NCBI GenBank assembly: GCA_017409845.1
Contig: JAFQRY010000032.1
Coordinates: 47,783 to 79,782 of the forward strand
Direction: 5' to 3'
From: Clostridia bacterium
Lineage (GTDB): Bacteria > Bacillota > Clostridia > Oscillospirales > Acutalibacteraceae
Length of the DNA: 32,000 bases
The notes beneath the pieces were generated by a model that searched no databases, was not told where the DNA came from, and saw only the letters and a program-made list of their open reading frames with translations. Positions 10,084 to 23,693 of this stretch are shown piece after piece (the first letter of the stretch is position 1; each line of letters begins with the position of its first letter). Position numbers and translations under genes: made by a program.

Positions 10084-10106
10084 AAAAAAGACCGCACAAA
10101 GCGGCC
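10084..10106 (-). terminator. rho-independent terminator of the Zn-ribbon membrane protein gene
   Basis: The minus strand reads GGCCGC-TTTGT-GCGGTC (one G-U pair) followed by TTTTTT. Confidence 0.65.
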
Positions 10107-10167
10107 TTTTTTGGTGAAAAGTCATATAATATATATTATTATATCAAAAAGAAATTATAATTGATGA

Positions 10168-10770
10168 TTATTTGCGTCTGAATGCACGGATGTGTGCATG
10201 GATTTCAGCTGCCTGAGAGTCGTTAAGACCCTTTATGTCAATTGCTCCGAAATCGGTGATGAGAGTGAATCCGGGGTGAGAATCCGAGCTTCTTCTGGTC
10301 GTTGAAACCACGCTCATTCCGATGCCGTGAGTGTTGACTCTGACAATATCGTCGTAATAAACGATGAAATGCTTTGTGAAGCAGGGGATTTTTGCGGGAA
10401 TTCTGCCTTCAATGCAGTTTTTGTAAACCTCAACATAGCATTTTGAAGCAGTGATTGCGGCCAGAATTATATAAATAAGTGCAAGCACTCCTGCACACAT
10501 AATCACGGCATCGGCAAAACGGTTGTTGTTATCGGAAATCATAAGAAGAATCACATAACCCATCATTCCTGCAAGCGGAATCAGAACAAGCGGAAAGAGT
10601 ATATATTTGTAAAAATAATTTTTGCCCATGGTGAAAAATCTCAGGGATTTGCCTTTTTCACGGTCTGAATAATCGGGCACGGGCTCAAGAGGAGTTGATT
10701 TCAGCCTTCCGCATTCGGTGCAGAGATTATCCGAACGGCTCATTTTTGCTTTGCAGAATTTGCATTTCAT
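10168..10770 (-). CDS. zinc-ribbon / 2-TM membrane protein with a C-terminal cytoplasmic beta-rich (bacterial PH-like?) domain
   Basis: The start is set at MKCKFCKAKMSRSDNLCTECG (CxxC..CxxC), where GAGGTGA lies 5 nt upstream. Two hydrophobic helices follow, then an ~80-aa C-terminal domain. The ORF-track extension to 10821 has no RBS. Confidence 0.6.
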   Translation of the reverse strand: MKCKFCKAKMSRSDNLCTECGRLKSTPLEPVPDYSDREKGKSLRFFTMGKNYFYKYILFPLVLIPLAGMMGYVILLMISDNNNRFADAVIMCAGVLALIYIILAAITASKCYVEVYKNCIEGRIPAKIPCFTKHFIVYYDDIVRVNTHGIGMSVVSTTRRSSDSHPGFTLITDFGAIDIKGLNDSQAAEIHAHIRAFRRK

Positions 10771-10789
10771 TTTTATCACCTCTGATTTT

Positions 10790-10818
10790 AATATAGCAGA
10801 CAAATCGGTAACAGTCAA
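10790..10818 (-). promoter_or_regulatory. candidate sigma-A promoter of the Zn-ribbon membrane protein gene
   Basis: The minus strand reads TTGACT (10813-10818), 17 nt, TATATT (10790-10795). Confidence 0.5.
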
Positions 10819-10927
10819 CAAAACAATTCACTTTTCCACATTTCCGTCATCCTTCTTTTGAATGATTGATGATTTATTATAGTTGAATTATTATGATTAT
10901 ATTTATTATTACTTACGGTTGTTTTTC

Positions 10928-10999
10928 GAACCTCGCGAAGTATGATTTTTATACCTCGCAGGTGTGTTTTCTGAACCTCGCAGGTGTGATTTTTACCTG
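10928..10999. repeat. 3.2 tandem copies of a 22-23-bp unit (iteron-like)
   Basis: + strand units are GAACCTCGCGAAGTATGATTTTT (10928-10950), ATACCTCGCAGGTGTGTTTTCT (10951-10972), GAACCTCGCAGGTGTGATTTTT (10973-10994) and ACCTG (partial). Confidence 0.85.
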
Positions 11000-11004
11000 T
11001 TCCG

Positions 11005-11034
11005 AAAAAAACGGGACGGCACAGAGGCCGTCCC
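11005..11034 (-). terminator. rho-independent terminator of the three-gene membrane-protein operon
   Basis: 8-bp GC stem GGGACGGC / GCCGTCCC with a 6-nt loop, followed on the minus strand by G plus TTTTTTT. It lies 26 nt downstream of the stop at 11060. Confidence 0.8.
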
Positions 11035-11059
11035 CTACGGTGTTGGATATGGTTTTCGG

Positions 11060-11329
11060 TCAGAAAATATTACCGAGCATCTTAGCAATTGTTTCGGATG
11101 CAGCAATAAGTTTTTCTTCGTTTTCACCGAATAGCTCAAGGAATTTTTCTGTGCCGGAATTGAGAAATTCTATAAAAGCATCAACATCACCTGCAAAAAA
11201 GATGTTTATGATAAAAGAAAAAGGCGACATGATGACATCGTTGACCGTGATTCCGAGTTTATCCGCAATAACGATAATTGATAAAAACGGAAGGCATAAA
11301 GGGATAAACAGCATAGCTACAGAGCCCAT
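11060..11329 (-). CDS. small hypothetical membrane protein (89 aa)
   Basis: AAGGAGG RBS 5 nt upstream of the ATG. It begins 21 nt after the stop of the upstream gene. One or two hydrophobic helices are followed by an acidic amphipathic tail. The overlapping + strand ORF 10893-11345 runs through the repeats and the terminator and is rejected. Confidence 0.6.
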   Translation of the reverse strand: MGSVAMLFIPLCLPFLSIIVIADKLGITVNDVIMSPFSFIINIFFAGDVDAFIEFLNSGTEKFLELFGENEEKLIAASETIAKMLGNIF

Positions 11330-11350
11330 AATGTCCTCCTTTTGAATTAT

Positions 11351-12004
11351 TTAATCATAAAAACGGTGAGATTCGTCAATGATTTCTGCACCGTTATCAG
11401 TAATTTTATAAGTTATTGTGATACCCTCTTTGCTGTTTCCCGAACTACCGTATGAAAAAGAAATCCAATAGGTTTCTCTTTCGTATTTATCAAACGGATG
11501 GACAACGGTAAAGGTTGTTTCGGCGTTGTTTGTGTCAGGATTATAAAGGACATATTCCGAATCTGCTACAGCAACATACCACGAACTGAATATGCTCGGC
11601 TTTTTCGCTTTTACGGTATAATCAAAATCATAATATTCGCCGGGAGCATAAACAGAAAGGTCATATGACTGCGGTGTATTCGTGTTATTACATACATAAT
11701 ATTTCTTTTCGTTGCCGTTTTTGTCCGTAAAAATAATGCTGCTGAATTCACCGCTTTGTGAGTCATGATAACCGAAGGATTTCGGACGGATATAAAAAAT
11801 CTGTTCATTTCCTCTGGTTTCGGTTTTGGCAAGCTGATAAATCTCGTCATCATAATTGCATTCCCAGACGATGCCGTTTTCAGGTTCATAGGGAAGAATG
11901 AACTCTGTTCTGTCGTTGCCTGTCATAAATCCGAAAATCATTTCGGGAATTAAGATAAACAGCATAATCGGGGTGAGAAGAAAAATCGTGAATGAAGCAC
12001 CCAT
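11351..12004 (-). CDS. hypothetical N-terminally membrane-anchored protein, paralogue B
   Basis: The start is set at MGASFTIFLL, with AGGAGA RBS upstream. One N-terminal TM helix. It shares EFILPYEPENGIVWE, GNEQIF, DYTVKA and LYNPDT blocks with the product of 12080-12790. Confidence 0.65.
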   Translation of the reverse strand: MGASFTIFLLTPIMLFILIPEMIFGFMTGNDRTEFILPYEPENGIVWECNYDDEIYQLAKTETRGNEQIFYIRPKSFGYHDSQSGEFSSIIFTDKNGNEKKYYVCNNTNTPQSYDLSVYAPGEYYDFDYTVKAKKPSIFSSWYVAVADSEYVLYNPDTNNAETTFTVVHPFDKYERETYWISFSYGSSGNSKEGITITYKITDNGAEIIDESHRFYD

Positions 12005-12079
12005 AGTATTCTCCTTTCTTTTGAACGCTATTTGGATAGTTCGCAATTTTTTGAATGAAACGCTGCTCCTGCAAATTTA

Positions 12080-12790
12080 TTAACTGATGTTGGAATTCAT
12101 CAATTCACCGGGAGTTGCAACCGGCAGATTATCTCTGAAAATAAGAGGGTCATTGGGTGTTGCAACGGGAGTGTCGCCCGTGAAATCAAACCATACATAG
12201 TGGTGTTCTTCATGACCGGCGGTTTCTGAACGGCATTCAAAATAACATCCGAATTCTTTTTCCTCGTTTTTGGGGAAAAGAATAACCGTGTGTGTTATTT
12301 CCGTACCTGTTGTGTCTGTGCTGTAGAGAATGTTTTCTTTATTTTTGCAATAAACATCAACAGACCATTCGCAATCCTCATTGCCGCAAACAGATTTTAC
12401 CGTATAATCTGTCACAACGCAGTCTTCTGCGGGTGCGATGATGACCTTATCATATATAAAGCCGTTTTCTGCATATGCATAATAGATGCGTGTTTCTCCG
12501 TTTTCAGCGGTAAAAACAAGGTCCATTACATAACCCTGTTTAATATCTGTTTTTGCATCCATACCTGTAAAAGAGAAAATCTGCTTGCCGTTTTCTGTTT
12601 TTGAGCTTGTAAGAATAACTGAAATATCGTTAACGCAGTCGTATTCCCAGATATATCCGCTTTCGGGCTCGTAAGGAAGAACAACCTCTGAGGTGTTGTC
12701 ACCGACTGCGATACCGAGAAATCCGAAAAGCGCCGAAGCAATTGCAAACACGGCAATTCCGCATATTGTAAAAAGTGTCATGAATACCAT
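12080..12790 (-). CDS. hypothetical N-terminally membrane-anchored protein, paralogue A
   Basis: The start is set at MVFMTLFTICG, with AGGAG 7 nt upstream. The ORF-track N-terminal extension MPSSRHQRKEKI is encoded by repeat copy B and is rejected. Collinear with paralogue B (EVVLPYEPESGYIWE, NGKQIF, DYTVKS, LYSTDT). Confidence 0.65.
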   Translation of the reverse strand: MVFMTLFTICGIAVFAIASALFGFLGIAVGDNTSEVVLPYEPESGYIWEYDCVNDISVILTSSKTENGKQIFSFTGMDAKTDIKQGYVMDLVFTAENGETRIYYAYAENGFIYDKVIIAPAEDCVVTDYTVKSVCGNEDCEWSVDVYCKNKENILYSTDTTGTEITHTVILFPKNEEKEFGCYFECRSETAGHEEHHYVWFDFTGDTPVATPNDPLIFRDNLPVATPGELMNSNIS

Positions 12791-12810
12791 AATTTTCTCC
12801 TTTCTTTGGT

Positions 12811-13056
12811 GGCGGGATGAGGGCATCCCGCCTTGATTTTTGATAAGTTAAAAAATCAATCCTCCGTCACGGCTTAAAGCCGTGACACCTCCTTTTCAAA
12901 GGAGGCTGATGTAACAGAAAGCTTTCTGTTATAATCAGACAAACTGTTTGGGCTCCTTTTATTAACTCCCTCAGTCTCGCTTTGCTCGACAGCTCCCTCA
13001 CGAGGGAGCCGTATTGCTGTCCGTAGGACTGAGGATTGGTGAATGCGAGAGCATTC
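12811..13056. repeat. copy B of the hairpin-dense modular intergenic repeat family
   Basis: GGCGGGATGAGGGCATCCCGC at 12811-12831 is identical to 1144-1164. The module CCTCCGTC-[ACGGCTTAAAGCCGT]-GACACCTCCTTTTCAAAGGAGG lies at 12861-12905. The palindrome AACAGAAAGCTTTCTGTT lies at 12912-12929. CTCCCTCAG..GCTCCCTCACGAGGGAGC lies at 12966-13009. GAATGC-GAGA-GCATTC lies at 13041-13056. Confidence 0.85.
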
Positions 13057-13090: not shown

Positions 13091-14686
13091 TTATCTTTCC
13101 AGACTGTCAATCAATTCAAAATGGTCAATGAAGAAATTCTGCGTTGCGTCTGCTTCGTTGCCCAGACCGATAACCTTGCCGTGGTCGCCGTCCTTTGTTT
13201 CGGCAACATTCCAGATGCCCCTTTGGATTCCGTCCATTTCTGCGATGGAATCCGTATATTCGATATAGGGTTCGTTGAACGGGTATCTTGCAGAAATAAC
13301 GCTCACAAGTCCGTCGTTTTCCTGCCATGCTTCGTCAATGGTAATTCCGCCTGCGGTTGTGCCCTTGAAGGAGCCCATTGCAAGTGCAAACGGATAAAGA
13401 ATGGGCAGGGTTGAGGTGTTGGGCACCTGACCTCTGAGAAGGGTGCCTGCCTTTGTTGTGCTGTAGGCATATGAGAAATAGTAAACGCCCTCAACCGTTC
13501 TGATTGTTGAGTTGAGTGCCGCCGCACCGTCGGGACTGAGGTCATATGCCGCGTGGTCGTTGCCTGCGGCAGTGATTTTGTCAATCGCACTTTCGGTGTT
13601 GCCGTCGGTTATTCCGAAATGGTCGAGCTTGAGGTCATAGATATTTTCGGCAGGCGATGCGATACCTGCAACGCCGAAGCAGAGGGTCATAAGAAGGTCG
13701 GTTGTGCTGCCGATGCCTACAAGACCGCCTACAGAATTGAGAACCTCGGTGAGCGATGAGCCGTTATGCGGTGCACAGAGGGTTGTTACGCTGTAAACCC
13801 AGTCACCCTTGCCGCCCGTGAAAAGCGGTGAGGTTTCTTCGCCCGTGAGAGCAACCTCGGCTTCGCTGCCGTATTCGAGAAGCGATGCAAGAAGTCTGAC
13901 GGTTGCACCGCCGAATGAATGGCCGAGAAGATTGATTTTTATTCTCTGACCGCCGTTGATTTTTTCGCCCCACTGAGCAACGAGCGGGGTATCGTATGTT
14001 CTGCCGTAGCGTTCGTGATTGTGTGCTTTTGAATGAGCCTCGCCGTAGTCAACGGTTGTGCCCGTAAGCTGTGCATAGAGCTCGCAGGTTCTGTCCCATG
14101 TGCTTGAAACGGGGCCCACACTCGGAGCATAAACTTCGTAGCCCTGCGAATTGAGCTGTTCGGTGAGGTTGCATGCGGTTGCTCCCCAATACTGAACGGT
14201 ATCGTTGACTCCGTCTCCCTCGCCCCATCCGCCGAGACCGTGAACGAGAACATAAGGATATTTGATTTTACCGCCGTTGAGCTCCCACCACGCTTCACGG
14301 ATTCCGCCGTAGTGAATGGGGATTGCAATAACCGTAATAATAACGCATATTGCAAGAATGGCGGCGATCGTTTTTATCAGCAGGCTGTTTTTGCCTTTTT
14401 TCGGTTTTTTGTTTTTAACGGGAACAGCGGGTGCAGGGTCGGAATATGCCGACTGCGGCTCTGCAGGTTCATTATTGAATGTTTCGGTTATATCCTCTTT
14501 CAGAAGATAGTCGGTAGAAACTCCGAAAAGCTCGCTCATTGCTATTATCTTATCGGTATCGGGAAGTGCACTGCCCGACTCCCATTTTGAAACGGACTGA
14601 CGGGATACTCCCATTGCCTCCGCAAATGATTCCTGAGAAAGTCCTTTTTCTTTTCTGAGTTTAATTATTTTGTCTGCAATACTCAT
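13091..14686 (-). CDS. XRE-family HTH / transmembrane / extracytoplasmic triacylglycerol-lipase-like (family I.5-like alpha/beta hydrolase) fusion protein
   Basis: The start is set at MSIADKIIKLRKEKGLSQESFAEAMGVSRQSVSKWESG, a canonical XRE HTH, with AGGAGG 7 nt upstream. One TM helix (LLIKTIAAILAICVIITVIAIPI). The lipase core shows YVLVHGLGGWGE, VGPVSSTWDRTCELYAQLTGTTVDYGEAHSKAHNHERYGRTY, the nucleophile elbow GHSFGG and TTLCAPHNGS. This closely parallels Geobacillus/Staphylococcus-type lipases. Confidence 0.8.
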   Translation of the reverse strand: MSIADKIIKLRKEKGLSQESFAEAMGVSRQSVSKWESGSALPDTDKIIAMSELFGVSTDYLLKEDITETFNNEPAEPQSAYSDPAPAVPVKNKKPKKGKNSLLIKTIAAILAICVIITVIAIPIHYGGIREAWWELNGGKIKYPYVLVHGLGGWGEGDGVNDTVQYWGATACNLTEQLNSQGYEVYAPSVGPVSSTWDRTCELYAQLTGTTVDYGEAHSKAHNHERYGRTYDTPLVAQWGEKINGGQRIKINLLGHSFGGATVRLLASLLEYGSEAEVALTGEETSPLFTGGKGDWVYSVTTLCAPHNGSSLTEVLNSVGGLVGIGSTTDLLMTLCFGVAGIASPAENIYDLKLDHFGITDGNTESAIDKITAAGNDHAAYDLSPDGAAALNSTIRTVEGVYYFSYAYSTTKAGTLLRGQVPNTSTLPILYPFALAMGSFKGTTAGGITIDEAWQENDGLVSVISARYPFNEPYIEYTDSIAEMDGIQRGIWNVAETKDGDHGKVIGLGNEADATQNFFIDHFELIDSLER

Positions 14687-14782
14687 GGTCAGCCTCCTTT
14701 GTGATTCAACCGAATTGTAGCTTGTTACGGCGGCGTTTTCAACCAATTCGGGTGTACATTTATAAAAAAGTTAAAATTTTTA

Positions 14783-16533: not shown

Positions 16534-16717
16534 AAAAAAATCTCCTTCCGGAATAACCGCAAAGGAGATGCAAATAGTCAACAAAAGCGATTTAGGATTA
16601 AATCACTCTGAACAGCTCCGCCGATGCGGTATATTCTTTTGAACTTCTACTTCGGGGGTTGGGTATATCGGAACTGCCCAAGAGTTTCACCACACTTTTT
16701 CAAAAAAATTTTTTGCA
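16534..16717 (-). promoter_or_regulatory. ~180-nt structured mgtE leader ending in a terminator-like, SD-sequestering hairpin (unclassified riboswitch/attenuator candidate)
   Basis: The minus strand reads ATCTCCTT-TG-CGG-TTATT-CCG-G-AAGGAGAT (16569-16540) followed by TTTTTTT and then the ATG. The 3' arm of the hairpin is the Shine-Dalgarno sequence. Upstream stems are TTGGG..CCCAA, CCGC-ATCG-GCGG and GATTTA-ATCC-TAAATC. Confidence 0.5.
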
Positions 16718-16723
16718 ACTGTA

Positions 16724-16752
16724 ATTTTACACCCTGTAACGCATGAAGTCAA
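16724..16752 (-). promoter_or_regulatory. candidate sigma-A promoter of mgtE
   Basis: The minus strand reads TTGACT (16747-16752), 17 nt, TAAAAT (16724-16729). Confidence 0.55.
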
Positions 16753-16963
16753 GCAAAATTGCAAAAAAATCCGAAAAATAAAAATATTCAACAAAAACGG
16801 AGAAAAACGGCGTAAATATGCCAGAAACAGGCGAAAACGGGAGAAATCGAAGCACAGAATGCGGCGGTTCCGAAAAACCTTTTAACCTTTTTGGGTTAAA
16901 AAAACACGGTGTTCCGCCTTAGGGTGAGAGGAGTTTTCATAATCCTCTCGGAAAGGAGATGGT

Positions 16964-17449
16964 TTGTTGCCAAAGAAACTTACCGAAAAGGAGCGGCTGT
17001 TCTGTTCTTATTATGCTCAGGGCGGCGATGCAAGAGGCTGTGCGGCACGGGCGGGATTTTCCCTGACCCCTCAGCGGAGTGCGGCAAGGCTTCTTGCAAA
17101 AAGCGAAATAAGGACGGAAATCATGCGGCTTGAAAGCGAAAGAAAAAATTCATCTGCCGTTGAAAGGGGGCTTCACCGCCTTGCGTTCGGGTCTGTTGCC
17201 GATGCACTCAGACTTTTGCTTTGCGAGGAAACGATGAGTGCTGAGGAAATCGAAAAGCTTGATTTCTTTAATGTTTCCGAAATAAAGCGGCCCAAGGGCG
17301 GGGGTCTTGAAATCAAGTTTTTTGACAGACTGAAGGCACTTGAAAAGCTTGAGAAGCTCGGCTCGGGAGAGGAGAAGCCGCAGAGCAGCTTCATTCAGGC
17401 TCTCTCGGAGGGTGCAAGGCTGATTTCTCGGGAGGATGAAGATGAGTAA
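16964..17449 (+). CDS. terS: phage terminase small subunit
   Basis: 161 aa with a TTG start and AAGGAG 5 nt upstream. The N-terminus LTEKERLFCSYYAQGGDARGCAARAGFS is the typical terminase-small HTH block. The 3' end overlaps terL. Confidence 0.8.
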   Translation: MLPKKLTEKERLFCSYYAQGGDARGCAARAGFSLTPQRSAARLLAKSEIRTEIMRLESERKNSSAVERGLHRLAFGSVADALRLLLCEETMSAEEIEKLDFFNVSEIKRPKGGGLEIKFFDRLKALEKLEKLGSGEEKPQSSFIQALSEGARLISREDEDE

Positions 17450-18722
17450 GTCCGATAAAAAGCAGGGCTTCACTCCGTTTTCAAAAAAGCAGATGAAAGC
17501 CCTCTGCTGGTGGATGCCGCAGAGTCCTCTGCATACGCATGATGCAATAATCTGTGACGGTGCGGTGCGTTCGGGCAAAACGCTCTGCATGTCCGTTTCG
17601 TTTGTTGCCTGGGCGTTCTCCGCTTTTTCGGACCGTTCCTTTGCTCTTTGCGGAAAAACAATTTCTTCTCTCCGCCGCAATGTTGTGACCGTCATTCTGC
17701 CCGTTCTGCGTGAGCTCGGGTTTGTGTGTGACGAAAAATATTCAAAGAATCTCATTGAGATTTCTTACGGCGGAGCAACAAACCGTTTCTATCTTTTCGG
17801 CGGCAAGGATGAAGGCTCGGCGGCTCTTATTCAGGGCATGACGCTTGCGGGTGTTCTGCTTGATGAGGTGACACTGATGCCCCGCTCCTTTGTTGAGCAG
17901 GCACTTGCGAGATGCTCCGTTGAAGGCTCAAAGCTCTGGTTCAACTGCAATCCCGAGCACCCCATGCACTGGTTCCATGAGGAATGGATAAAGAAAAGGG
18001 ATGAGAAAAACTGCTGCTATCTTCATTTTACAATGAAGGATAACCCTTCGCTTACACCTGCTATTATCCGCAGATACGAAAGGCTTTATTCGGGAGCGTT
18101 TTATGAACGCTTTGTGCTCGGAAGATGGGTTGCGGCACAGGGCTGCGTTTATCCGATGTTTTCGCAGGAAAAGCATGTGGTTCACCCTCCCTCACGCTTT
18201 GAGAAATACTATATTTCGTGCGACTACGGAACGGTTAATCCCTCATCCTTCGGGCTGTGGGGAGAAAGCGGCGGCGTGTGGTACAGAATCAGGGAATATT
18301 ATTTTGATTCACGCACCGAGGGCAGGCAGAAAACCGACAGCGAGCATTACGAGTCGCTTTGCACTCTTGCGGACGGACTGAAAATCGAGGCGGTGGTTAT
18401 CGACCCTTCGGCGGCAAGCTTTATTGAGTGCATAAGGCGTGACGGAAAATTCAGGGTCATACCTGCCAGAAACGATGTTGTTGACGGAATAAGAAGGGTT
18501 TCTGACTGCCTTAAGGACGGAAAAATTCTTTTTTCGCCTGAATGCAGGGCATCAATCAGGGAATTCGGTCTTTACCGCTGGGAGGAAAGCACGGCAAGGG
18601 ATACCGTGAGAAAAGAAAATGACCATGCAATGGACGATATCCGCTATTTTGTTTCAACCGTTCTGACGAAGGAGGATGATATCGGATTTTTCGCCCTTGC
18701 GGCAAAAAGGAAAGGGGGTTAA
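17436..18722 (+). CDS. terL: phage terminase large subunit (PBSX-like)
   Basis: 428 aa with Walker A CDGAVRSGKT, a Walker B-like LLDEV and a C-terminal nuclease domain. ATGA overlap with terS. Confidence 0.85.
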   Translation: MKMSKSDKKQGFTPFSKKQMKALCWWMPQSPLHTHDAIICDGAVRSGKTLCMSVSFVAWAFSAFSDRSFALCGKTISSLRRNVVTVILPVLRELGFVCDEKYSKNLIEISYGGATNRFYLFGGKDEGSAALIQGMTLAGVLLDEVTLMPRSFVEQALARCSVEGSKLWFNCNPEHPMHWFHEEWIKKRDEKNCCYLHFTMKDNPSLTPAIIRRYERLYSGAFYERFVLGRWVAAQGCVYPMFSQEKHVVHPPSRFEKYYISCDYGTVNPSSFGLWGESGGVWYRIREYYFDSRTEGRQKTDSEHYESLCTLADGLKIEAVVIDPSAASFIECIRRDGKFRVIPARNDVVDGIRRVSDCLKDGKILFSPECRASIREFGLYRWEESTARDTVRKENDHAMDDIRYFVSTVLTKEDDIGFFALAAKRKGG

Positions 18723-18725
18723 AAC

Positions 18726-19856
18726 ATGGGAATATTCAAAAACCGGAAGCCTTCAAGAGTTTCCGCACCCGTAACGCAGAATAAAAACAGACATCCGTTC
18801 GGGATTCTTGACGGTTATGTGCCGCTCGGAGTGCCGCAGCTGAGGCTTTATTATGCACTCAGGGAGGCTGTGCCCGTTATTGATGCGGCGATATTCAAAT
18901 TGGTCCGTCTTACGGGTGGCTTCAGAGTTGAATGCTCTGATTCAGAGGCACAGACTGCGGTTGATGAGTTCATTACTGATGTGCCCGTCGGAGGCAACAG
19001 ACAGGGTCTTTCCGCCTTTATTTCGACCTATTTTGAGCAGCTTCTGACCTGCGGCACGGCAATCGGAGAAATCGTTACGGACACGGACGGCGTGCCCCGT
19101 GCACTTTTTAATTCTCCGCTTGAAAATATCGAGCTCAAAAGACATAAAAACGGCTTTGATGTTGATATTTTCGTCAGAAACGGCACGGAGCTCCGTCGGG
19201 TTTCACAGCCCGGAATGTGTCTTCTGAGCGTGCTCAATCCCGAGCCGGGTGCACTCACGGGCAATTCGATGCTCAAGGGGCTTCCGTTTGTCAGCTCCGT
19301 GCTTCTGAGAATATTTGAGAGCATCGGTGCAAACTGGGAAAGGGTCGGCAATCTCCGCTTTGCCGTTACCTATAATCCGAAAAACGATGCGGTTGACAGA
19401 GCCTATGCGAAGGACAGAGCCCTGCAGGTTGCGAAGGAATGGGGCGAGGCGATGCAGAGCGGCTCGGAAATCAGGGATTTTGTTGCGGTCGGTGATGTTC
19501 AGATAAAGGTCATCGGTGCGGATAATCAGATTCTTGACAGCGAGGTGCCCGTGCGTCAGATGCTTGAGCAGATTGTTGCAAAAACGGGTCTGCCGCCCTT
19601 TATGCTCGGTCTTTCATGGTCGAGCACGGAAAGAATGTCGTCACAGCAGGCGGATGTGCTCACAAGCGAGCTTGAAGCCTACAGACAGCTTCTTACTCCC
19701 GTGATAAAGAAAATCTGCACTGTTTTTCTCAGGGGTAACGGATATCACTGCGGAGTAAAGGTTGTGTGGGATGATATCACACTTCAGGATGAGGTTGAAC
19801 AGAGCCGTGCTCAGCTTTACAGAGCACAGGCGGAAAAAATAAAGAGAGGTGAATAA
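18726..19856 (+). CDS. phage portal protein (call based on position and size)
   Basis: 376 aa, located immediately after terL and before the prohead protease. RBS AAAGGGGG. No motif recognised by eye. Confidence 0.6.
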   Translation: MGIFKNRKPSRVSAPVTQNKNRHPFGILDGYVPLGVPQLRLYYALREAVPVIDAAIFKLVRLTGGFRVECSDSEAQTAVDEFITDVPVGGNRQGLSAFISTYFEQLLTCGTAIGEIVTDTDGVPRALFNSPLENIELKRHKNGFDVDIFVRNGTELRRVSQPGMCLLSVLNPEPGALTGNSMLKGLPFVSSVLLRIFESIGANWERVGNLRFAVTYNPKNDAVDRAYAKDRALQVAKEWGEAMQSGSEIRDFVAVGDVQIKVIGADNQILDSEVPVRQMLEQIVAKTGLPPFMLGLSWSSTERMSSQQADVLTSELEAYRQLLTPVIKKICTVFLRGNGYHCGVKVVWDDITLQDEVEQSRAQLYRAQAEKIKRGE

Positions 19857-20716
19857 TTACGCAGGAAAACAAAACAAACACTCTGCCCGATGAGGAGCTT
19901 GAGCTTATCGGCAGATTCGCAAGAAAAAAGCTTTCGGACGAGGAGCTTTATACCTTTACGCTTATTCTCTGCGATAACGAAATCGACAGGGATAACGAAA
20001 AATTCACGGTTGCCGCACTTCATATTCTTTCTGAGCTTTTTGTTGGCAAAACGGGAATTTTTGACCACAACATGAAGAGCAGGGATCAGTCTGCGAGAAT
20101 TTATGCGGCGAAGGTTGTGACCGATTCATCGAGAAAGACTGCCGACGGCGAGGATTATACATACATCGAAGCCAAGGCATATATGGTCAGAACCGAAAAG
20201 AATAAAGACCTTATCACGGAAATTGATGCAGGCATCAAAAAGGAAACCAGCGTGGGCTGTGCGGTAAAGGATATAAGCTGCTCAATCTGCGGCAAAAACA
20301 TCAAAACGGAGGGCTGCGAGCATAAAAAAGGCAATGTTTACGGCGGAAAGCTCTGCTGTTATCTGCTCTCGGAGCCCACGGATGCATATGAATGGTCTTT
20401 TGTTGCCGTGCCTGCACAGAAGAATGCGGGCATCATCAAGTCATTCAGCCCTTCGCATGAAAAAGAGAAGCTTGCGGAGTGGGCAAGGGAATATACGGAC
20501 GAGCTCAGAACGGATATTGTCCGTGCGGCGGCAAGCGTTGTTCCCGCACTTCAGAGTGACGCATTGAGCGAAATCTGCGGTGCACTTTCAATCAAATCAC
20601 TCAGGGCTCTGCGTGATGCGTTACGCATGAGTGCACAGAAAAATCTGCCGGTTGTCAGACAGCTTGAAGCAGTTCAGCCCGATAACGGCAGTGAAAATTC
20701 GGAATATAAAATTTAA
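19856..20716 (+). CDS. prohead serine protease (HK97 gp4 / S78-like) with a C-terminal scaffold-like tail and a non-canonical (ATT?) start
   Basis: S78 blocks appear in order: DRDNEKFTVAAL, the catalytic-His block GIFDHN, the Ser block KETSVGCAV and EWSFVAVPAQKNA. The frame is open from 19853. The first two blocks lie upstream of the first ATG (20072), and there is no ATG/GTG/TTG between 19853 and 20072. GAGAGGTG is followed 4 nt later by ATT at 19856, which overlaps the portal stop as TAATT. Confidence 0.6.
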   Translation: MTQENKTNTLPDEELELIGRFARKKLSDEELYTFTLILCDNEIDRDNEKFTVAALHILSELFVGKTGIFDHNMKSRDQSARIYAAKVVTDSSRKTADGEDYTYIEAKAYMVRTEKNKDLITEIDAGIKKETSVGCAVKDISCSICGKNIKTEGCEHKKGNVYGGKLCCYLLSEPTDAYEWSFVAVPAQKNAGIIKSFSPSHEKEKLAEWAREYTDELRTDIVRAAASVVPALQSDALSEICGALSIKSLRALRDALRMSAQKNLPVVRQLEAVQPDNGSENSEYKI

Positions 20717-20729
20717 GGAGGAATAATTT

Positions 20730-21068
20730 ATGTCAGTATCATTCAGCGGATTCAACGAAAACACGGCAACCTTTAAGTCAAACGAAGAGATTGCGGGCGG
20801 AACACCCGTAAAAATGAGCGGAACTGAAACCGTTGCGGCTGCGGCGAGCGGAGAGGCTTTCTGCGGCATTGCGGTTGACGGCGACGGAGAGTATGCTTCC
20901 GTTCAGCTCAGCGGTGCCGTCAGGTCAAAATACAGCGGCACTGCTCCCGCGGCAGGTTATTCAAAGCTTGTTTCCGACGGCGAAGGCGTAACCGCATCCG
21001 AAAGCGGCAGAGAATATCTTGTTGTTGCGGTTGACGAGGCTGCAGAAACAGTAACATTCATTATTTAA
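20730..21068 (+). CDS. head decoration / capsid cement-like protein (DUF2190-like)
   Basis: 112 aa, Gly/Ala/Val-rich and beta-type, sitting directly upstream of the major capsid gene. AAGGAGG RBS. The assignment rests on size, position and composition. Confidence 0.5.
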   Translation: MSVSFSGFNENTATFKSNEEIAGGTPVKMSGTETVAAAASGEAFCGIAVDGDGEYASVQLSGAVRSKYSGTAPAAGYSKLVSDGEGVTASESGREYLVVAVDEAAETVTFII

Positions 21069-21079
21069 GGAGGAGAAAA

Positions 21080-22084
21080 ATGATTAACTATGATAATATC
21101 AGACTTGAAAAAGGACTTTATGCAACGGGTGATTTCACAAAAGCTCTCGAAAGCATCGACCCGAGCGAAAATTACAGAGGGACCTCTCTCGAAGGACTGG
21201 ACGCATATCAGCGTCAGCTCAAAAGATTTGAAATCAAGGTCGGCGGCACATCGAGCGATGTTGTTGATAAGTTTTTCAGAAGTTCCGAAAGCGCGGTACT
21301 ATTCCCTGAATACATCTCAAGAGCGGTAAAGCAGGGTCTTGAGCAGGCGGATATTCTTTCGGATGTAGTTGCTTCAACAACGGTTATCGACGGTCTTGAT
21401 TATCGCTCAATCAGCTCAATTCCCACCGAAGAGGAAAAGGAAATCAAGGTTGTCAAGGAGGGTGCATTCATTCCCGAAACAAGCATCCGCACCAAGGAAA
21501 ACCTTGTAAAGCTCAGAAAAAGAGGCAGAAGCCTTGTTGCTTCATATGAGGCGATCAGATTCCAGCGTCTTGACCTTTTTACCGTAACTCTCAGACAGAT
21601 CGGTGCATATATCGCAAGAACCCTTCTCAGAGATGCAATTGATGTGCTTGCAAACGGCGACGGCAACGGCAATGCGGCTGAGGTTGTGAGCTGTGCACAG
21701 CAGGGCACCCTTGCTTATTCCGATCTTGTTGATTTCTGGAACGGCTTTGACCCCTATGAGCTCAACACCATCATTGCAGACCCTGCGGTTATGGCACAGA
21801 TGCTCAACATGGAGCAGTTCAGGGATGCGGCTGCAGGTCTTAATTTCCACGGCAAGGGAGATATGATTACGCCTCTCGGTGCAAAGCTTCTCAAATCAAC
21901 CGCTGTCGGTGAAAACAAGCTTATCGGTCTTGATAAAACCGCAGCTCTCGAAATGGTCAAGGCGGGCGAAATCATGACGGAATATGACAAGCTTATTGAC
22001 CGTCAGCTTGAGCGTGCCGTTATCAGCTGCACCGCAGGTTTTGCAAAGATTTTTGACGGAGCATCAAAGGTGCTTTCCGTCTGA
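21080..22084 (+). CDS. phage major capsid protein (HK97 fold)
   Basis: 334 aa with AAGGAGG RBS. Position after the protease and decoration genes supports the call. Capsid-family-like blocks are VKLRKRGRSLVASYEAIRFQRLDLF and DAIDVLANGDGNGNA. Confidence 0.75.
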   Translation: MINYDNIRLEKGLYATGDFTKALESIDPSENYRGTSLEGLDAYQRQLKRFEIKVGGTSSDVVDKFFRSSESAVLFPEYISRAVKQGLEQADILSDVVASTTVIDGLDYRSISSIPTEEEKEIKVVKEGAFIPETSIRTKENLVKLRKRGRSLVASYEAIRFQRLDLFTVTLRQIGAYIARTLLRDAIDVLANGDGNGNAAEVVSCAQQGTLAYSDLVDFWNGFDPYELNTIIADPAVMAQMLNMEQFRDAAAGLNFHGKGDMITPLGAKLLKSTAVGENKLIGLDKTAALEMVKAGEIMTEYDKLIDRQLERAVISCTAGFAKIFDGASKVLSV

Positions 22085-22092
22085 CGGGAGGC

Positions 22093-22464
22093 ATGGCTTT
22101 GATTGACTGTCTGAGCGTTTTATCGGCGTTGAGGGAATATTATTCTCCCGAGGGCACGGATGAGGAGCTTGCACCTCTTTGCACCATGGCGGTTAACGAG
22201 CTTTTGCCGAGGGTAAAAAGCGAAAGCGTTCACTCGGATGCACGGCTTGTCGGCCTTGCCGCTGCAATGGCAAATTACCGTCTTTGTGCAAAAAAGGTCA
22301 GAAATTCGGATGGCGTCACTTCGTTTAAAGCAGGTGATGTAACTGTGAGCGTTTCGGCTTCGGCACTCATGGAGCATGCAGAAAAGGAAAGAAGTCACGC
22401 AATGCTTGCTGCCGTGCCCCTGCTTAAGGACGAAGAATTCCTTTTTAAACAGGTGAGAATATGA
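22093..22464 (+). CDS. head-tail connector / DNA-packaging (gp6-like) protein
   Basis: 123 aa, helical, in the first position after the capsid gene. ATGA overlap with the next gene. Confidence 0.5.
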   Translation: MALIDCLSVLSALREYYSPEGTDEELAPLCTMAVNELLPRVKSESVHSDARLVGLAAAMANYRLCAKKVRNSDGVTSFKAGDVTVSVSASALMEHAEKERSHAMLAAVPLLKDEEFLFKQVRI

Positions 22465-22802
22465 ACATAAATACAATTTTCGGGTCATACGGCAGACCTG
22501 CCTCATTTTTCTCGAAAAGCAATGAAAAAATAACCGATATGAGGGCTTTCATAAGCCCTCTGAGGTATAAAAACAAGATGTATCTTTACGGCGTCAACAC
22601 GGAAATCGGCTATAATTCGCAGGGTCATTATCTTTATATCGGCCCTCCCGCCCCCGATCTCACAGCCGCCGAGGAGGGGGCATATGTTGCATGCGGGGAT
22701 GAAAAATACCGTATTGACAGAGCCGAAAAGGTCTATAAAGGAAATGAAGTATTTTATATCTGGGCGATAATCCGTGTTATCGTTGAGCTTGAGGAGGGAT
22801 AA
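22461..22802 (+). CDS. head closure / head-tail adaptor-like protein
   Basis: 113 aa. Its size and position match head-closure proteins. No motif confirmed. Confidence 0.45.
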   Translation: MNINTIFGSYGRPASFFSKSNEKITDMRAFISPLRYKNKMYLYGVNTEIGYNSQGHYLYIGPPAPDLTAAEEGAYVACGDEKYRIDRAEKVYKGNEVFYIWAIIRVIVELEEG

Positions 22803-22805
22803 ACC

Positions 22806-23642
22806 GTGAATGAAATAAGTGCATTGCCGTCAAATATCGTTGAGTGGCTGAAGGGGAGGGAGGAACTCTCCGAAATCAAGTTTCTCACCGAATTTCCGGC
22901 AATAAAAAAGGCTGTGCCGCTTAAAAACACAACGGTTGCGGTCGGCATAGAGAGCATGGAAATTGTTGATTCCTTTACGGAAAATGATGAGGGCGTGCTT
23001 GTTGAAAACGAATATTGCAGGCAGGCGAAAATCAGACTCAGGCTTTCAATCCATGCACCTTATTCGCTCGGCGGCGAAGCCTGCCATGATGCGTTTACGG
23101 ATATCATAGACTGCCTGACCTTTGCTTCGGGGCTTGATATTCTTTCCTCGGGCTGCAACGGGATTGTTTCGGACAGAGATACCGATGCATTTGTGCTCAG
23201 TGCGTGGGCAACGGTCAATGCCTCACTCTGCCCTGCGGCAAGCTCGGGTCTCGACTTTCCGTCATTCATAAGCAAGGATCTGCTCTGCGGCACGCATATA
23301 AATGATGCAGACATCCATCTTTCGCCCGAACAGCAGGAATATCTTGCAACGCCGTTTGAAAGCGGCTCGTATTTCGGCACGGGCGATTCGACGGGGACGG
23401 TTTCTCTCGGCTTCACACCGAGCGTTGTTATTGTTATCGGCAGCGGTCTTCCGATGATATTCTATAAAACTTCGGACAGCAGATACTATGCGACGGCGGC
23501 GGTCGGAACGGCAGACGGTGCGAGCCTCGGACTTGAGCTTACATCGAAGGGCTTCAAGGTGAGAAACGGGGTTGCATCAAAAAATGTTACGGCTAATCTC
23601 AACGAGCTCGGCATGACATATTTTTATCTGGCGTTCAAATAA
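22806..23642 (+). CDS. hypothetical phage structural protein: N-terminal tail-completion/terminator-like half fused to an unknown C-terminal beta domain
   Basis: 278 aa with a GTG start and GGAGGG 8 nt upstream. Last gene of the module. The C-terminal half contains GSYFGTGDSTGTVSLGFTPSVVIVIG. Confidence 0.45.
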   Translation: MNEISALPSNIVEWLKGREELSEIKFLTEFPAIKKAVPLKNTTVAVGIESMEIVDSFTENDEGVLVENEYCRQAKIRLRLSIHAPYSLGGEACHDAFTDIIDCLTFASGLDILSSGCNGIVSDRDTDAFVLSAWATVNASLCPAASSGLDFPSFISKDLLCGTHINDADIHLSPEQQEYLATPFESGSYFGTGDSTGTVSLGFTPSVVIVIGSGLPMIFYKTSDSRYYATAAVGTADGASLGLELTSKGFKVRNGVASKNVTANLNELGMTYFYLAFK

Positions 23643-23648
23643 AAGCAG

Positions 23649-23673
23649 CCCCGGATCCGCAAAGGATTCGGGG
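23649..23673. terminator. 10-bp hairpin between the convergent phage module and ydjC-like gene
   Basis: CCCCGGATCC-GCAAA-GGATTCGGGG. The minus-strand tail is CTGCTTTT and there is no T tract on the + strand. Confidence 0.55.
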
Positions 23674-23693
23674 CGTAGTAAATTAACAGTATT

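Follow-up and report, generated by a model that had tools for sequence, protein, structure and literature searches.

A 32-kb stretch of DNA from a Clostridia bacterium of the family Acutalibacteraceae (assembly GCA_017409845.1, contig JAFQRY010000032.1; the whole stretch of 32,000 nucleotides is referred to below as the window) carries nine plus-strand open reading frames (ORFs) at 16964-23642, between the host genes mgtE and ydjC, whose products are those of a phage packaging, head and neck module. We consider it probable, although well short of certain, that this module is a domesticated, tail-less capsid operon resembling a gene transfer agent (GTA) and derived from a PBSX/Mu-like myovirus. 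An earlier note, made from the sequence alone, had offered three interpretations, i.e., a recently truncated prophage, a capsid-forming satellite, and an element that is domesticated, GTA-like or split. Of the last of these, gene comparisons now lend strong support to domestication, through the linkage of the module to mgtE, synonymous divergence like that of host genes, and purifying selection.

Using one genome per GTDB species, we found relatives of the module in the genomes of at least 550 species, and the best 80 of these were all Oscillospirales isolates or metagenome-assembled genomes (MAGs), mostly labelled Acutalibacteraceae. There were more than 8000 capsid homologues, of which the top 120 were all exactly 334 amino acids (aa) long, with identities of 82-96%; the contigs that encode them reach 490 kb. 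Contigs with an 84%-identical capsid carried the same series of genes, i.e., mgtE, the nine module genes, ydjC, GH92, a FliB_C-like gene, a PASTA kinase gene and glgB. Even at 63-69% capsid identity mgtE was found divergently upstream, whereas the downstream neighbour varied among relatives, always being a host gene. When loci were compared by tblastn, nearly every one that covered the region had all nine genes in order and at full length, and full-length genes without internal stops were present in 65-91 loci. The only stops inside high-scoring segment pairs were natural ones at their ends. The earlier note had taken the intact reading frames to argue against long-standing decay and had allowed that orthologues riddled with frameshifts would tell against a functional module; frameshifts were seen in none of the loci.

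The ratio of nonsynonymous to synonymous substitution (dN/dS), expressed as the median over 23 close-clade species, was between 0.085 and 0.29 for the nine genes, and is listed in Table 1 together with the values for three neighbouring host genes. The nearest species genome is L011 (individual related loci and genomes are denoted here by L and a number). Synonymous divergence (dS) from it was 0.78 for mgtE of the window and 0.62-0.91 for eight of its module genes; for the ninth, that of the large terminase, the dS of this pair was excluded as an artefact of codon alignment. Host-like dS, purifying selection and linkage to mgtE together indicate that the module has co-diverged with its hosts, i.e., that it has been domesticated. 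In the comparison across relatives that the earlier note had proposed, the nine genes were conserved in presence and order, under purifying selection. Two hallmarks of GTAs can be recognized, these being a phage-derived cluster of structural and packaging genes that lacks functions for replication, integration and control of lysogeny, and vertical inheritance coupled with purifying selection.

Gene identities were assigned using the Pfam, PHROG and NCBIfam libraries, together with profile searches of the PDB and Foldseek (Table 1). The nine ORFs have the coordinates, tight coupling and uninterrupted frames that had been described, with junctions of -14, +3, -4, +13, +11, +8, -4 and +3 nt, and a GGAGG-like ribosome-binding site (RBS) precedes all nine starts. 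Library matches also bore out the labels given to terS, terL, the portal and the HK97-type capsid protein, the last of which gave only a weak match, to TIGR01554 (HK97-type capsid), in the NCBIfam scan. The model for PBSX-family large terminases (TIGR01547) matched terL with 197 bits, against a cut-off of 105, which is above the equivalog cut-off of NCBIfam. A Walker A motif (GAVRSGKT), a Walker B motif (LLDE) and the nuclease Asp motifs can be read in its translation, i.e., the ATPase and nuclease motifs are intact, and terS retains an N-terminal region of the helix-turn-helix (HTH) type. The description of the fifth product (g5) as decoration-like agrees with its match to a PHROG annotated "virion structural protein", and there is a weak match to phrog_673 (scaffolding) as well. 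For the two proteins described as connectors or closure proteins (g7 and g8), size and position fit but no library match was obtained. With g7, which is conserved in 65 loci, neither the family libraries nor the PDB profile search returned a match; with g8, which carries an invariant PLRYKNKMYL block, there was no significant match in Pfam, PHROG or PDB profiles, and a scan with the orthologue set was uninformative.

The last gene (g9), described earlier as a 278-aa terminator-like fusion, proved to be just that. In the AlphaFold2 (AF2) model (m4ecae80238f0, 278 aa), which has a mean predicted local distance difference test score (pLDDT) of 73.7, an α/β N-terminal domain (aa 1-141) is followed by a low-confidence linker (aa 143-170) and an all-β C-terminal domain, with pLDDT above 90 for aa 184-277. 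When the N-terminal domain was searched against the PDB with Foldseek, it matched λ gpU, the collars of pyocin R2 and diffocin, the SaPI1 neck and the PhiTE connector with a probability of 1.0 and E values of 4e-5 to 1e-2, and in BFVD there were matches from 2e-7. Target-normalised TM-scores were moderate (0.35-0.69), and membership of the terminator family is therefore claimed at the level of the fold; a PDB profile search with g9 gave nothing significant. Comparison with related loci accounted for both halves of the protein. By BLASTP, residues 15-134 matched a stand-alone terminator of 152 aa in L061 (2e-25), and residues 158-278 matched the C-terminal 121 aa of the product of L061 16558-17112 (2e-20), a gene at the fibre position of a baseplate module. 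The same match of the C-terminal domain to the last baseplate gene was found in L042, L045, L058, L063 and L101. A derivation of g9 from the terminator plus the 119-aa ORF of L081 was considered and discarded (BLASTP, E = 5.4).

Within g9, dN/dS was 0.08 in the N-terminal domain, 0.25 in the linker and 0.31 in the C-terminal domain, and by this measure the latter is faster-evolving than the N-terminal domain but still constrained. An exhaustive HMMER search of a representative library of 1.84 billion proteins gave 226 representatives of the C-terminal domain family, mostly either stand-alone (~155 aa) or fused (~271 aa). A few giant proteins of 946-2898 aa contain 6-13 tandem copies of part of the domain, which suggests a β-sandwich module of the adhesion type. 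Four residues of the linker (Cys142, Cys161, His164 and His171) are invariant and might bind metal.

Architectures were counted in the 170 related loci that scans of genomes and of IMG/VR had yielded. Sixty-four were of the head-only, fused type with a long g9, 55 had a terminator plus a baseplate, and 19 were classed as other; a few ("type C") had a short terminator only and no fibre domain. By Pfam and PHROG, the baseplate-type loci have a stand-alone terminator of ~145 aa, then a 119-aa ORF, and then a set comprising a LysM/Mu-gp43-like protein, a hub, a gp45-like protein, a gp25-like sheath initiator, Baseplate_J and a gp48-like protein. A fibre-position protein of ~155 aa closes this set (L081 8040-12578, L061 11771-17112, L063 11032-16906). 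Among cultured isolates, Ruminococcus sp. LCP21S3_E8 carries this baseplate form. In the loci examined closely (e.g., L081 and L061) there is no room for a sheath, tube or tape measure, and no baseplate or tail homologue was found within ±10 kb of the fused-type loci. L061 and its allies also adjoin mgtE.

In a neighbour-joining tree of terL, portal and capsid, all 53 fused-type loci were monophyletic, with capsid identity down to ~63%. Their sister group includes the mgtE-linked baseplate loci, and the other baseplate types are basal. The simplest history that these gene orders and this tree suggest is a stepwise reduction of the tail with a single deletion. A remnant of a PBSX/Mu-like myovirus, already without sheath, tube and tape measure, would have sat beside mgtE; one ancient, in-frame deletion of ~4.6 kb would then have taken out the ORF at the tube position together with the baseplate, so that the terminator became joined to the fibre tip, and this fusion would have been retained ever since in the clade of the window. 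According to the earlier note, relatives with tail genes directly behind the terminator homologue would point to a simple recent deletion. Relatives of this form do occur at the mgtE locus, but what they carry is a baseplate only, the elements are equally reduced and conserved, and the deletion is ancient.

The fourth gene (g4) occupies the position of a protease or scaffold, and had been labelled an S78 prohead protease with a scaffold-like tail. Its product has an N-terminal globular domain with an invariant His72, Ser133 and Cys cluster, and a C-terminal helical tail (AF2 model, pLDDT 73, with helices at 204-263); on our own reading, the order of the His72 and Ser133 motifs resembles that in S78. 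Position, the two invariant residues and the modelled tail are in favour of the label, but a family match is lacking, with nothing in Pfam, NCBIfam, PDB sequences or Foldseek searches of the PDB, and scans with the orthologue set were likewise unhelpful. The gene starts with AUA at 19853, overlapping the portal stop as ATAA (within 19850-19858), and no ATG, GTG or TTG occurs after the portal stop until codon 74 of g4. In sister species the codon directly behind the upstream in-frame TGA is ATG, overlapping the portal stop as ATGA, and this is the ancestral arrangement. The ATA start is found throughout the subclade of the window, comprising at least 11 species, with a second codon that varies (ATT, ACT or ATC), and the first 73 codons are open and conserved across relatives; gene callers shorten the g4 proteins to 214-235 aa. 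The most plausible reading of this arrangement is that translation initiates, or re-initiates, at AUA; it does not reflect decay, and the start codon is hence not the blemish that it had been taken for.

Scans of the 32 kb with Pfam, PHROG and NCBIfam agreed with the reported absence of tail, lysis, integrase, repressor and replication genes around the module. The rest of the window consists of ordinary host genes plus a few unknowns, the former including those for subunits of oxaloacetate decarboxylase, a class II aminoacyl-tRNA synthetase (with glycyl-tRNA synthetase domains in its L006 homologue), a GTPase of the elongation factor G family, mgtE, ydjC, GH92, a PASTA kinase and glgB. Within ±10 kb of 80 related loci there were also no tail, lysis, integrase or replication genes. 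The window contains no tRNA gene, there is no discontinuity in GC content at the module, and, as had been noted, the two borders are not linked by any att-like repeat (direct repeats of at least 11 nt). The hairpin and convergent host gene with which the module was said to end are real (Table 1). The T-run of this hairpin is on the minus strand, which identifies it as the terminator of ydjC, and it probably acts in both directions. Long same-strand blocks after g9 in L041, L048 and L073 turned out to be host genes, and large genes 5' of terS in distant loci were housekeeping genes (a thiamine pyrophosphate enzyme, pyruvate kinase, MscS and an AMP-binding enzyme).

If the GTA-like reading is correct, the phage remnant would have become fixed beside mgtE in a bacterium from which a large part of the Acutalibacteraceae descends, and would have been passed on vertically ever after. 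The portal, g4, the capsid protein and the small virion protein would form a procapsid, which TerS and TerL would fill with DNA, and the two neck proteins and a terminator ring would close the neck. From the ~4.6-kb deletion and the fusion that it created, we predict a tail-less capsid capped by a terminator hexamer that displays six flexibly tethered binding domains, and we infer that the fused C-terminal domain of g9 binds a receptor. These DNA-filled capsids would be produced under the control of the host and released, and would bind to cells, with lysis and regulation encoded elsewhere, and DNA would be moved or presented between kin cells in the manner of a GTA. Since the HTH-type region of TerS is retained, packaging may begin site-specifically in situ and proceed downstream, in the way of lateral transduction. 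One possible route of entry for the DNA would be uptake by the competence machinery after binding at the cell surface. A more ambitious version of this reading, which we put forward tentatively and would not expect to hold, is that the particle is a self-sufficient, minimal transducing particle in which a terminator ring with six tethered fibre tips replaces the tail. Hundreds of gut Acutalibacteraceae species would then make such particles under host control, delivering or presenting DNA to kin without tube, nozzle or baseplate, and their relatives would record the stepwise loss, first of sheath, tube and tape measure and then of the baseplate. Acutalibacteraceae contributed ~10% of the bacterial DNA contained in virus-like particles (VLPs) in one mouse condition, which is circumstantial.

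Several points weigh against the GTA-like reading. The element is known here from its genes, and three of these, i.e., g4, g7 and g8 (the protease and two neck proteins), have been assigned from position; the receptor-binding role is argued from gene position in relatives and from the class of fold, the domain having no match to a known receptor-binding protein (RBP). The 32-kb window contains no holin or endolysin and no regulator for the operon. With its HTH-type region, TerS may package DNA in a sequence-specific manner, unlike the random packaging of classical GTAs. We know of no way in which a particle without a tube, nozzle or ejection proteins could get DNA through a Gram-positive wall. 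Finally, the type C relatives have no fibre domain, which implies that the fused domain is not universally required.

The presence of neck proteins without a tube or baseplate would also be expected if the capsids became infective after docking onto tails made elsewhere, either at a separate conserved locus in the same genome or by co-resident or foreign phages. Such arrangements are documented, both in multilocus GTAs (operon II of FpGTA, the GTA of Faecalibacterium prausnitzii, and the accessory loci of RcGTA, that of Rhodobacter capsulatus) and in the tail-less capsids of phage-inducible chromosomal islands of the capsid-forming type (cf-PICIs). However, the terminator belongs to the finished tail in siphoviruses and myoviruses, and the window element has one of its own, so that a borrowed tail would come already capped. 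A conserved fusion of terminator and fibre tip makes sense only if no baseplate follows, the description of cf-PICIs lists adaptor and connector genes and mentions no terminator, and the flanks of the fused-type loci, over the ±10 kb described above, harbour no candidate tail. We therefore regard tail piracy or a split tailed element as unlikely. A function other than gene transfer appears similarly improbable, perhaps a shade more so. The module might be an anti-phage decoy that titrates or mis-packages components of invading phages, or its capsids might export and protect DNA for biofilms or competence uptake, with no injection involved. Purifying selection shows that there is a benefit to the host and not what it is, no DNA-delivery apparatus is encoded, and in one related genome (L063, 2664-3635) the capsid operon has an abortive infection gene, Abi_2, a few kb upstream of it. 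Yet all parts of a DNA-filled, closed capsid, including terminases with intact motifs, are conserved together, although interference by a single protein would not need all nine genes, and the domain derived from a fibre has been retained.

The interpretation as a recently truncated or decaying prophage remnant without function, which the missing tail, lysis, integration and regulation genes and the lack of a canonical start codon in g4 might have suggested, we reject as having next to no chance of being right. The same tail-less architecture occurs in at least 53 sampled loci that form a single clade; dS to the nearest species, at 0.6-0.9, equals that of host genes such as mgtE; the genes are under purifying selection (dN/dS 0.085-0.29) and free of stops and frameshifts in every locus; and the AUA start itself is conserved. 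That the related loci are chimeras of assembly is implausible given their number and independent sources. A satellite like the cf-PICIs, the second proposal of the earlier note, does not fit either, because there are no integrase, replication, regulation or HNH genes and the module, of 6.7 kb, is vertically inherited and not mobile.

The 380-nt spacer between mgtE and terS is conserved in an alignment of 20 species. Its order is the mgtE promoter and a nearly invariant minus-strand leader, an A-rich block with repeats, and two stem-loops. The repeat block, with its AAAAACGG(A/C)G units, is conserved in the same intergenic alignment, and the repeats are candidate binding sites for a regulator. 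Across the window as a whole, the 9-mer of the repeat is over-represented when up to one mismatch is allowed (34 matches compared with 14.7 expected). RNAalifold analysis of 17 species revealed compensatory changes at three of the six pairs of hairpin 1 and at three of the seven pairs of hairpin 2. Both hairpins had been noticed before; the position given for hairpin 2 stands, but hairpin 1 is at 16880-16901 and not at 16888-16915. Rfam contains no known RNA matching the window or the leader, and scans of sigma-70 promoters and terminators were not above the expectation from shuffled sequence. Taken together, the conserved spacer, covarying hairpins and repeats are consistent with a dedicated and conserved control of the operon.

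On the mgtE side of the spacer, a promoter-like site (TTGACT-17-TAAAAT, 16752-16724, minus strand) is followed by a 5' leader (region 16585-16752), in which a block of ~50 nt (GTGTGGTGAAAATTTTGGGCAGTTCCGATATTCCCAACCCCCGAAGTAGAT) is nearly invariant in 18 species. This leader had no match in Rfam, including the M-box, and showed no covariation; the block may be an undescribed cis-regulatory leader. A gene at 13091-14746 (minus strand) encodes a protein that joins an XRE-type HTH to a lipase-like Lip_C domain. It lies within ~10 kb of the operon in the close clade despite rearrangements, was not found near distant loci, and is directly upstream of terS in L033 only. We considered it as a dedicated regulator, but as it is near the module only in the close clade the link was not established. 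At 10100-12900 there is a stretch of low GC content (~38%) with genes without a family match, i.e., those for a membrane protein with a zinc ribbon (10168-10821, minus strand) and for two signal-anchored paralogues (11351-12046 and 12080-12826, minus strand); similar small genes occupy the equivalent place in the related genomes L004-L010.

Table 1. Features of the module and its borders in the window, with median dN/dS for module genes and host genes
Feature	Position	Strand	Details	dN/dS
Three phased direct repeats	16793..16846	+	AAAAACGG(A/C)G; start spacing 10 and 31 nt; A-rich region	
Leader hairpin 1	16880..16901	+	TTTTAACC-N6-GGTTAAAA then A-run; inverted repeat; RNAalifold	
Leader hairpin 2	16925..16950	+	TGAGAGG...CCTCTCG; RNAalifold; ends at terS RBS	
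terS RBS	16950-16958	+	GGAAAGGAG; sequence	
terS, small terminase subunit	16964..17449	+	161 aa, TTG start; PF03592 1.2e-13; phrog_51 1.6e-15	0.14
terL, PBSX-family large terminase	17436..18722	+	428 aa; TIGR01547; phrog_2 1.5e-49; PF03237	0.085
Portal protein	18726..19856	+	376 aa; phrog_30703 2.7e-131; PF04860 weak	0.11
g4, protein at protease/scaffold position	19853..20716	+	287 aa; phrog_16951 2e-98, a PHROG without assigned function	0.14
g5, small virion protein, decoration- or scaffold-like	20730..21068	+	112 aa; phrog_4588 "virion structural protein" 7e-26	0.29
Major capsid protein, HK97-type	21080..22084	+	334 aa; PF25209 1.5e-14; phrog_3922 1e-97	0.09
g7, presumed head-tail adaptor	22093..22464	+	123 aa; position and size only	0.19
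g8, presumed head-closure protein/stopper	22461..22802	+	113 aa; position and size only; start overlaps g7 stop (ATGA)	0.14
g9, N-terminal domain, tail terminator	22806..23228	+	aa 1-141; AF2 model, Foldseek, BLASTP	0.155 (whole g9)
g9, linker and C-terminal β-sandwich	23229..23642	+	linker aa 142-183, domain aa 184-278 (23355-23642); BLASTP, AF2 model	
GC-rich hairpin, convergent g9/ydjC	23648..23674	.	fold energy -23.9 kcal/mol, z = -5.4	
mgtE (host)				0.085
ydjC (host)				0.11
GH92 (host)				0.10

GTA-like packaging has recently been recognized as common in gut Clostridia, with loci known for very few taxa (FpGTA, 2026) and several other taxa in which such packaging has no identified locus. 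The element described here is a concrete, family-wide candidate locus for the Acutalibacteraceae. What is new is how widespread and how old the domestication is, the stepwise reduction of the tail, the fusion of terminator and fibre tip, and the conserved AUA start; a literature search for head-only elements or GTAs of Acutalibacteraceae or Oscillospirales gave no paper on this Acutalibacteraceae element. Among the relatives, intermediates of tail reduction survive together with one gene fusion that can be dated, an uncommon natural series that bears on how little tail a DNA-carrying capsid needs. Should production of particles and transfer of DNA be confirmed, gene flow in the gut communities of animals and humans would have in this element a major route that has so far gone unaccounted for. 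A 46.7-kb GenBank record from Mexican faecal samples, labelled "Bacteriophage sp." (L001, MT835508.1), is a piece of bacterial chromosome with a 66%-identical capsid, in which Rnf, ApbE, ABC transporter and MarR genes precede the module and TetR, MgtC and SpoU genes follow it. The uncultivated viral genomes (UViGs) L091-L170 from IMG/VR are likewise pieces of bacterial chromosome, labelled viral, that carry the element. Viral databases hold many of these chromosomal loci under such labels, and virome counts are inflated as a result. The MT835xxx contigs probably come from a study of DNase-treated VLPs (PMC8361208), although the accession numbers are absent from the paper; the deposition of such a contig as phage is, like the figure from mice, circumstantial support for the GTA-like reading.

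Among known systems, the PBSX-like defective prophages of Bacillus share with the window element a PBSX-family terL, the same order of head and neck genes, a chromosomal location without replication, and packaging by terminase. The genes of PBSX run xtmA-xtmB-xkdE-G ... xkdK-xkdV, xhlAB-xlyA, and the order LysM, hub, gp25-like, Baseplate_J, gp48-like of the basal relatives corresponds to the XkdP-XkdU order. PBSX forms a complete particle with a contractile tail and kills cells, whereas neither a sheath, tube, tape measure or fibre nor a lysis cassette is encoded in the window, and the relatives keep a baseplate only. With GTAs of the RcGTA type the module has in common a vertically inherited, phage-derived head and packaging cluster under purifying selection, without replication or integration genes, presumably under host control and perhaps with its functions distributed among several loci. 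In RcGTA the tail is complete, siphovirus-like and encoded within the cluster, and TerS does not bind DNA specifically; in contrast, the window element lacks a tail, its TerS keeps an HTH-type N-terminus, and random packaging and transfer are putative properties of it.

The cf-PICIs resemble the module in having their own terminase, portal, protease, capsid, adaptor and connector but no tail, the adaptor and connector of the window being assigned by position. They are mobile islands of 10-18 kb with integrase, alpA regulation, replication and HNH genes (methods of the preprint describing them), and release tail-less, DNA-filled capsids that package the islands themselves and dock onto phage tails (same preprint). 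In the window, flanks of the module included, there is no integrase or recombinase, alpA, replication or HNH gene of this kind; the module is of 6.7 kb, sits at a fixed site across species, and has its own terminator, fused to a fibre tip.

The closest precedent is FpGTA of Faecalibacterium prausnitzii, a member of a neighbouring family, which has a chromosomal head operon (Borodovich et al., Nat Commun 2026, PMC12946183). Its particles resemble capsids of ~40 nm without a visible tail, and the host DNA in them measures 8.4-8.9 kb; a second operon 125 kb away encodes a baseplate, fibre, RBP, holin and endolysin (PMC12946183). Like the window operon, it belongs to gut Oscillospirales, comprises phage-derived terS, terL, portal, scaffold/protease and capsid genes conserved across species, and has no integrase or replication genes. 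However, FpGTA has a capsid of the N4-gp56 family, a Prp-type protease and a podovirus tail nozzle, and the window proteins had no N4-gp56 or Prp match in NCBIfam; the window terminase is of the PBSX family, with myovirus-like ancestry, the window element is known from a single operon, and the terminator-fibre fusion is without counterpart in the description of FpGTA. Compared in this way, by description and by family models, the two elements are analogous and not orthologous. Their origin from different phage lineages implies that phage heads have been domesticated repeatedly and independently in gut Oscillospirales.

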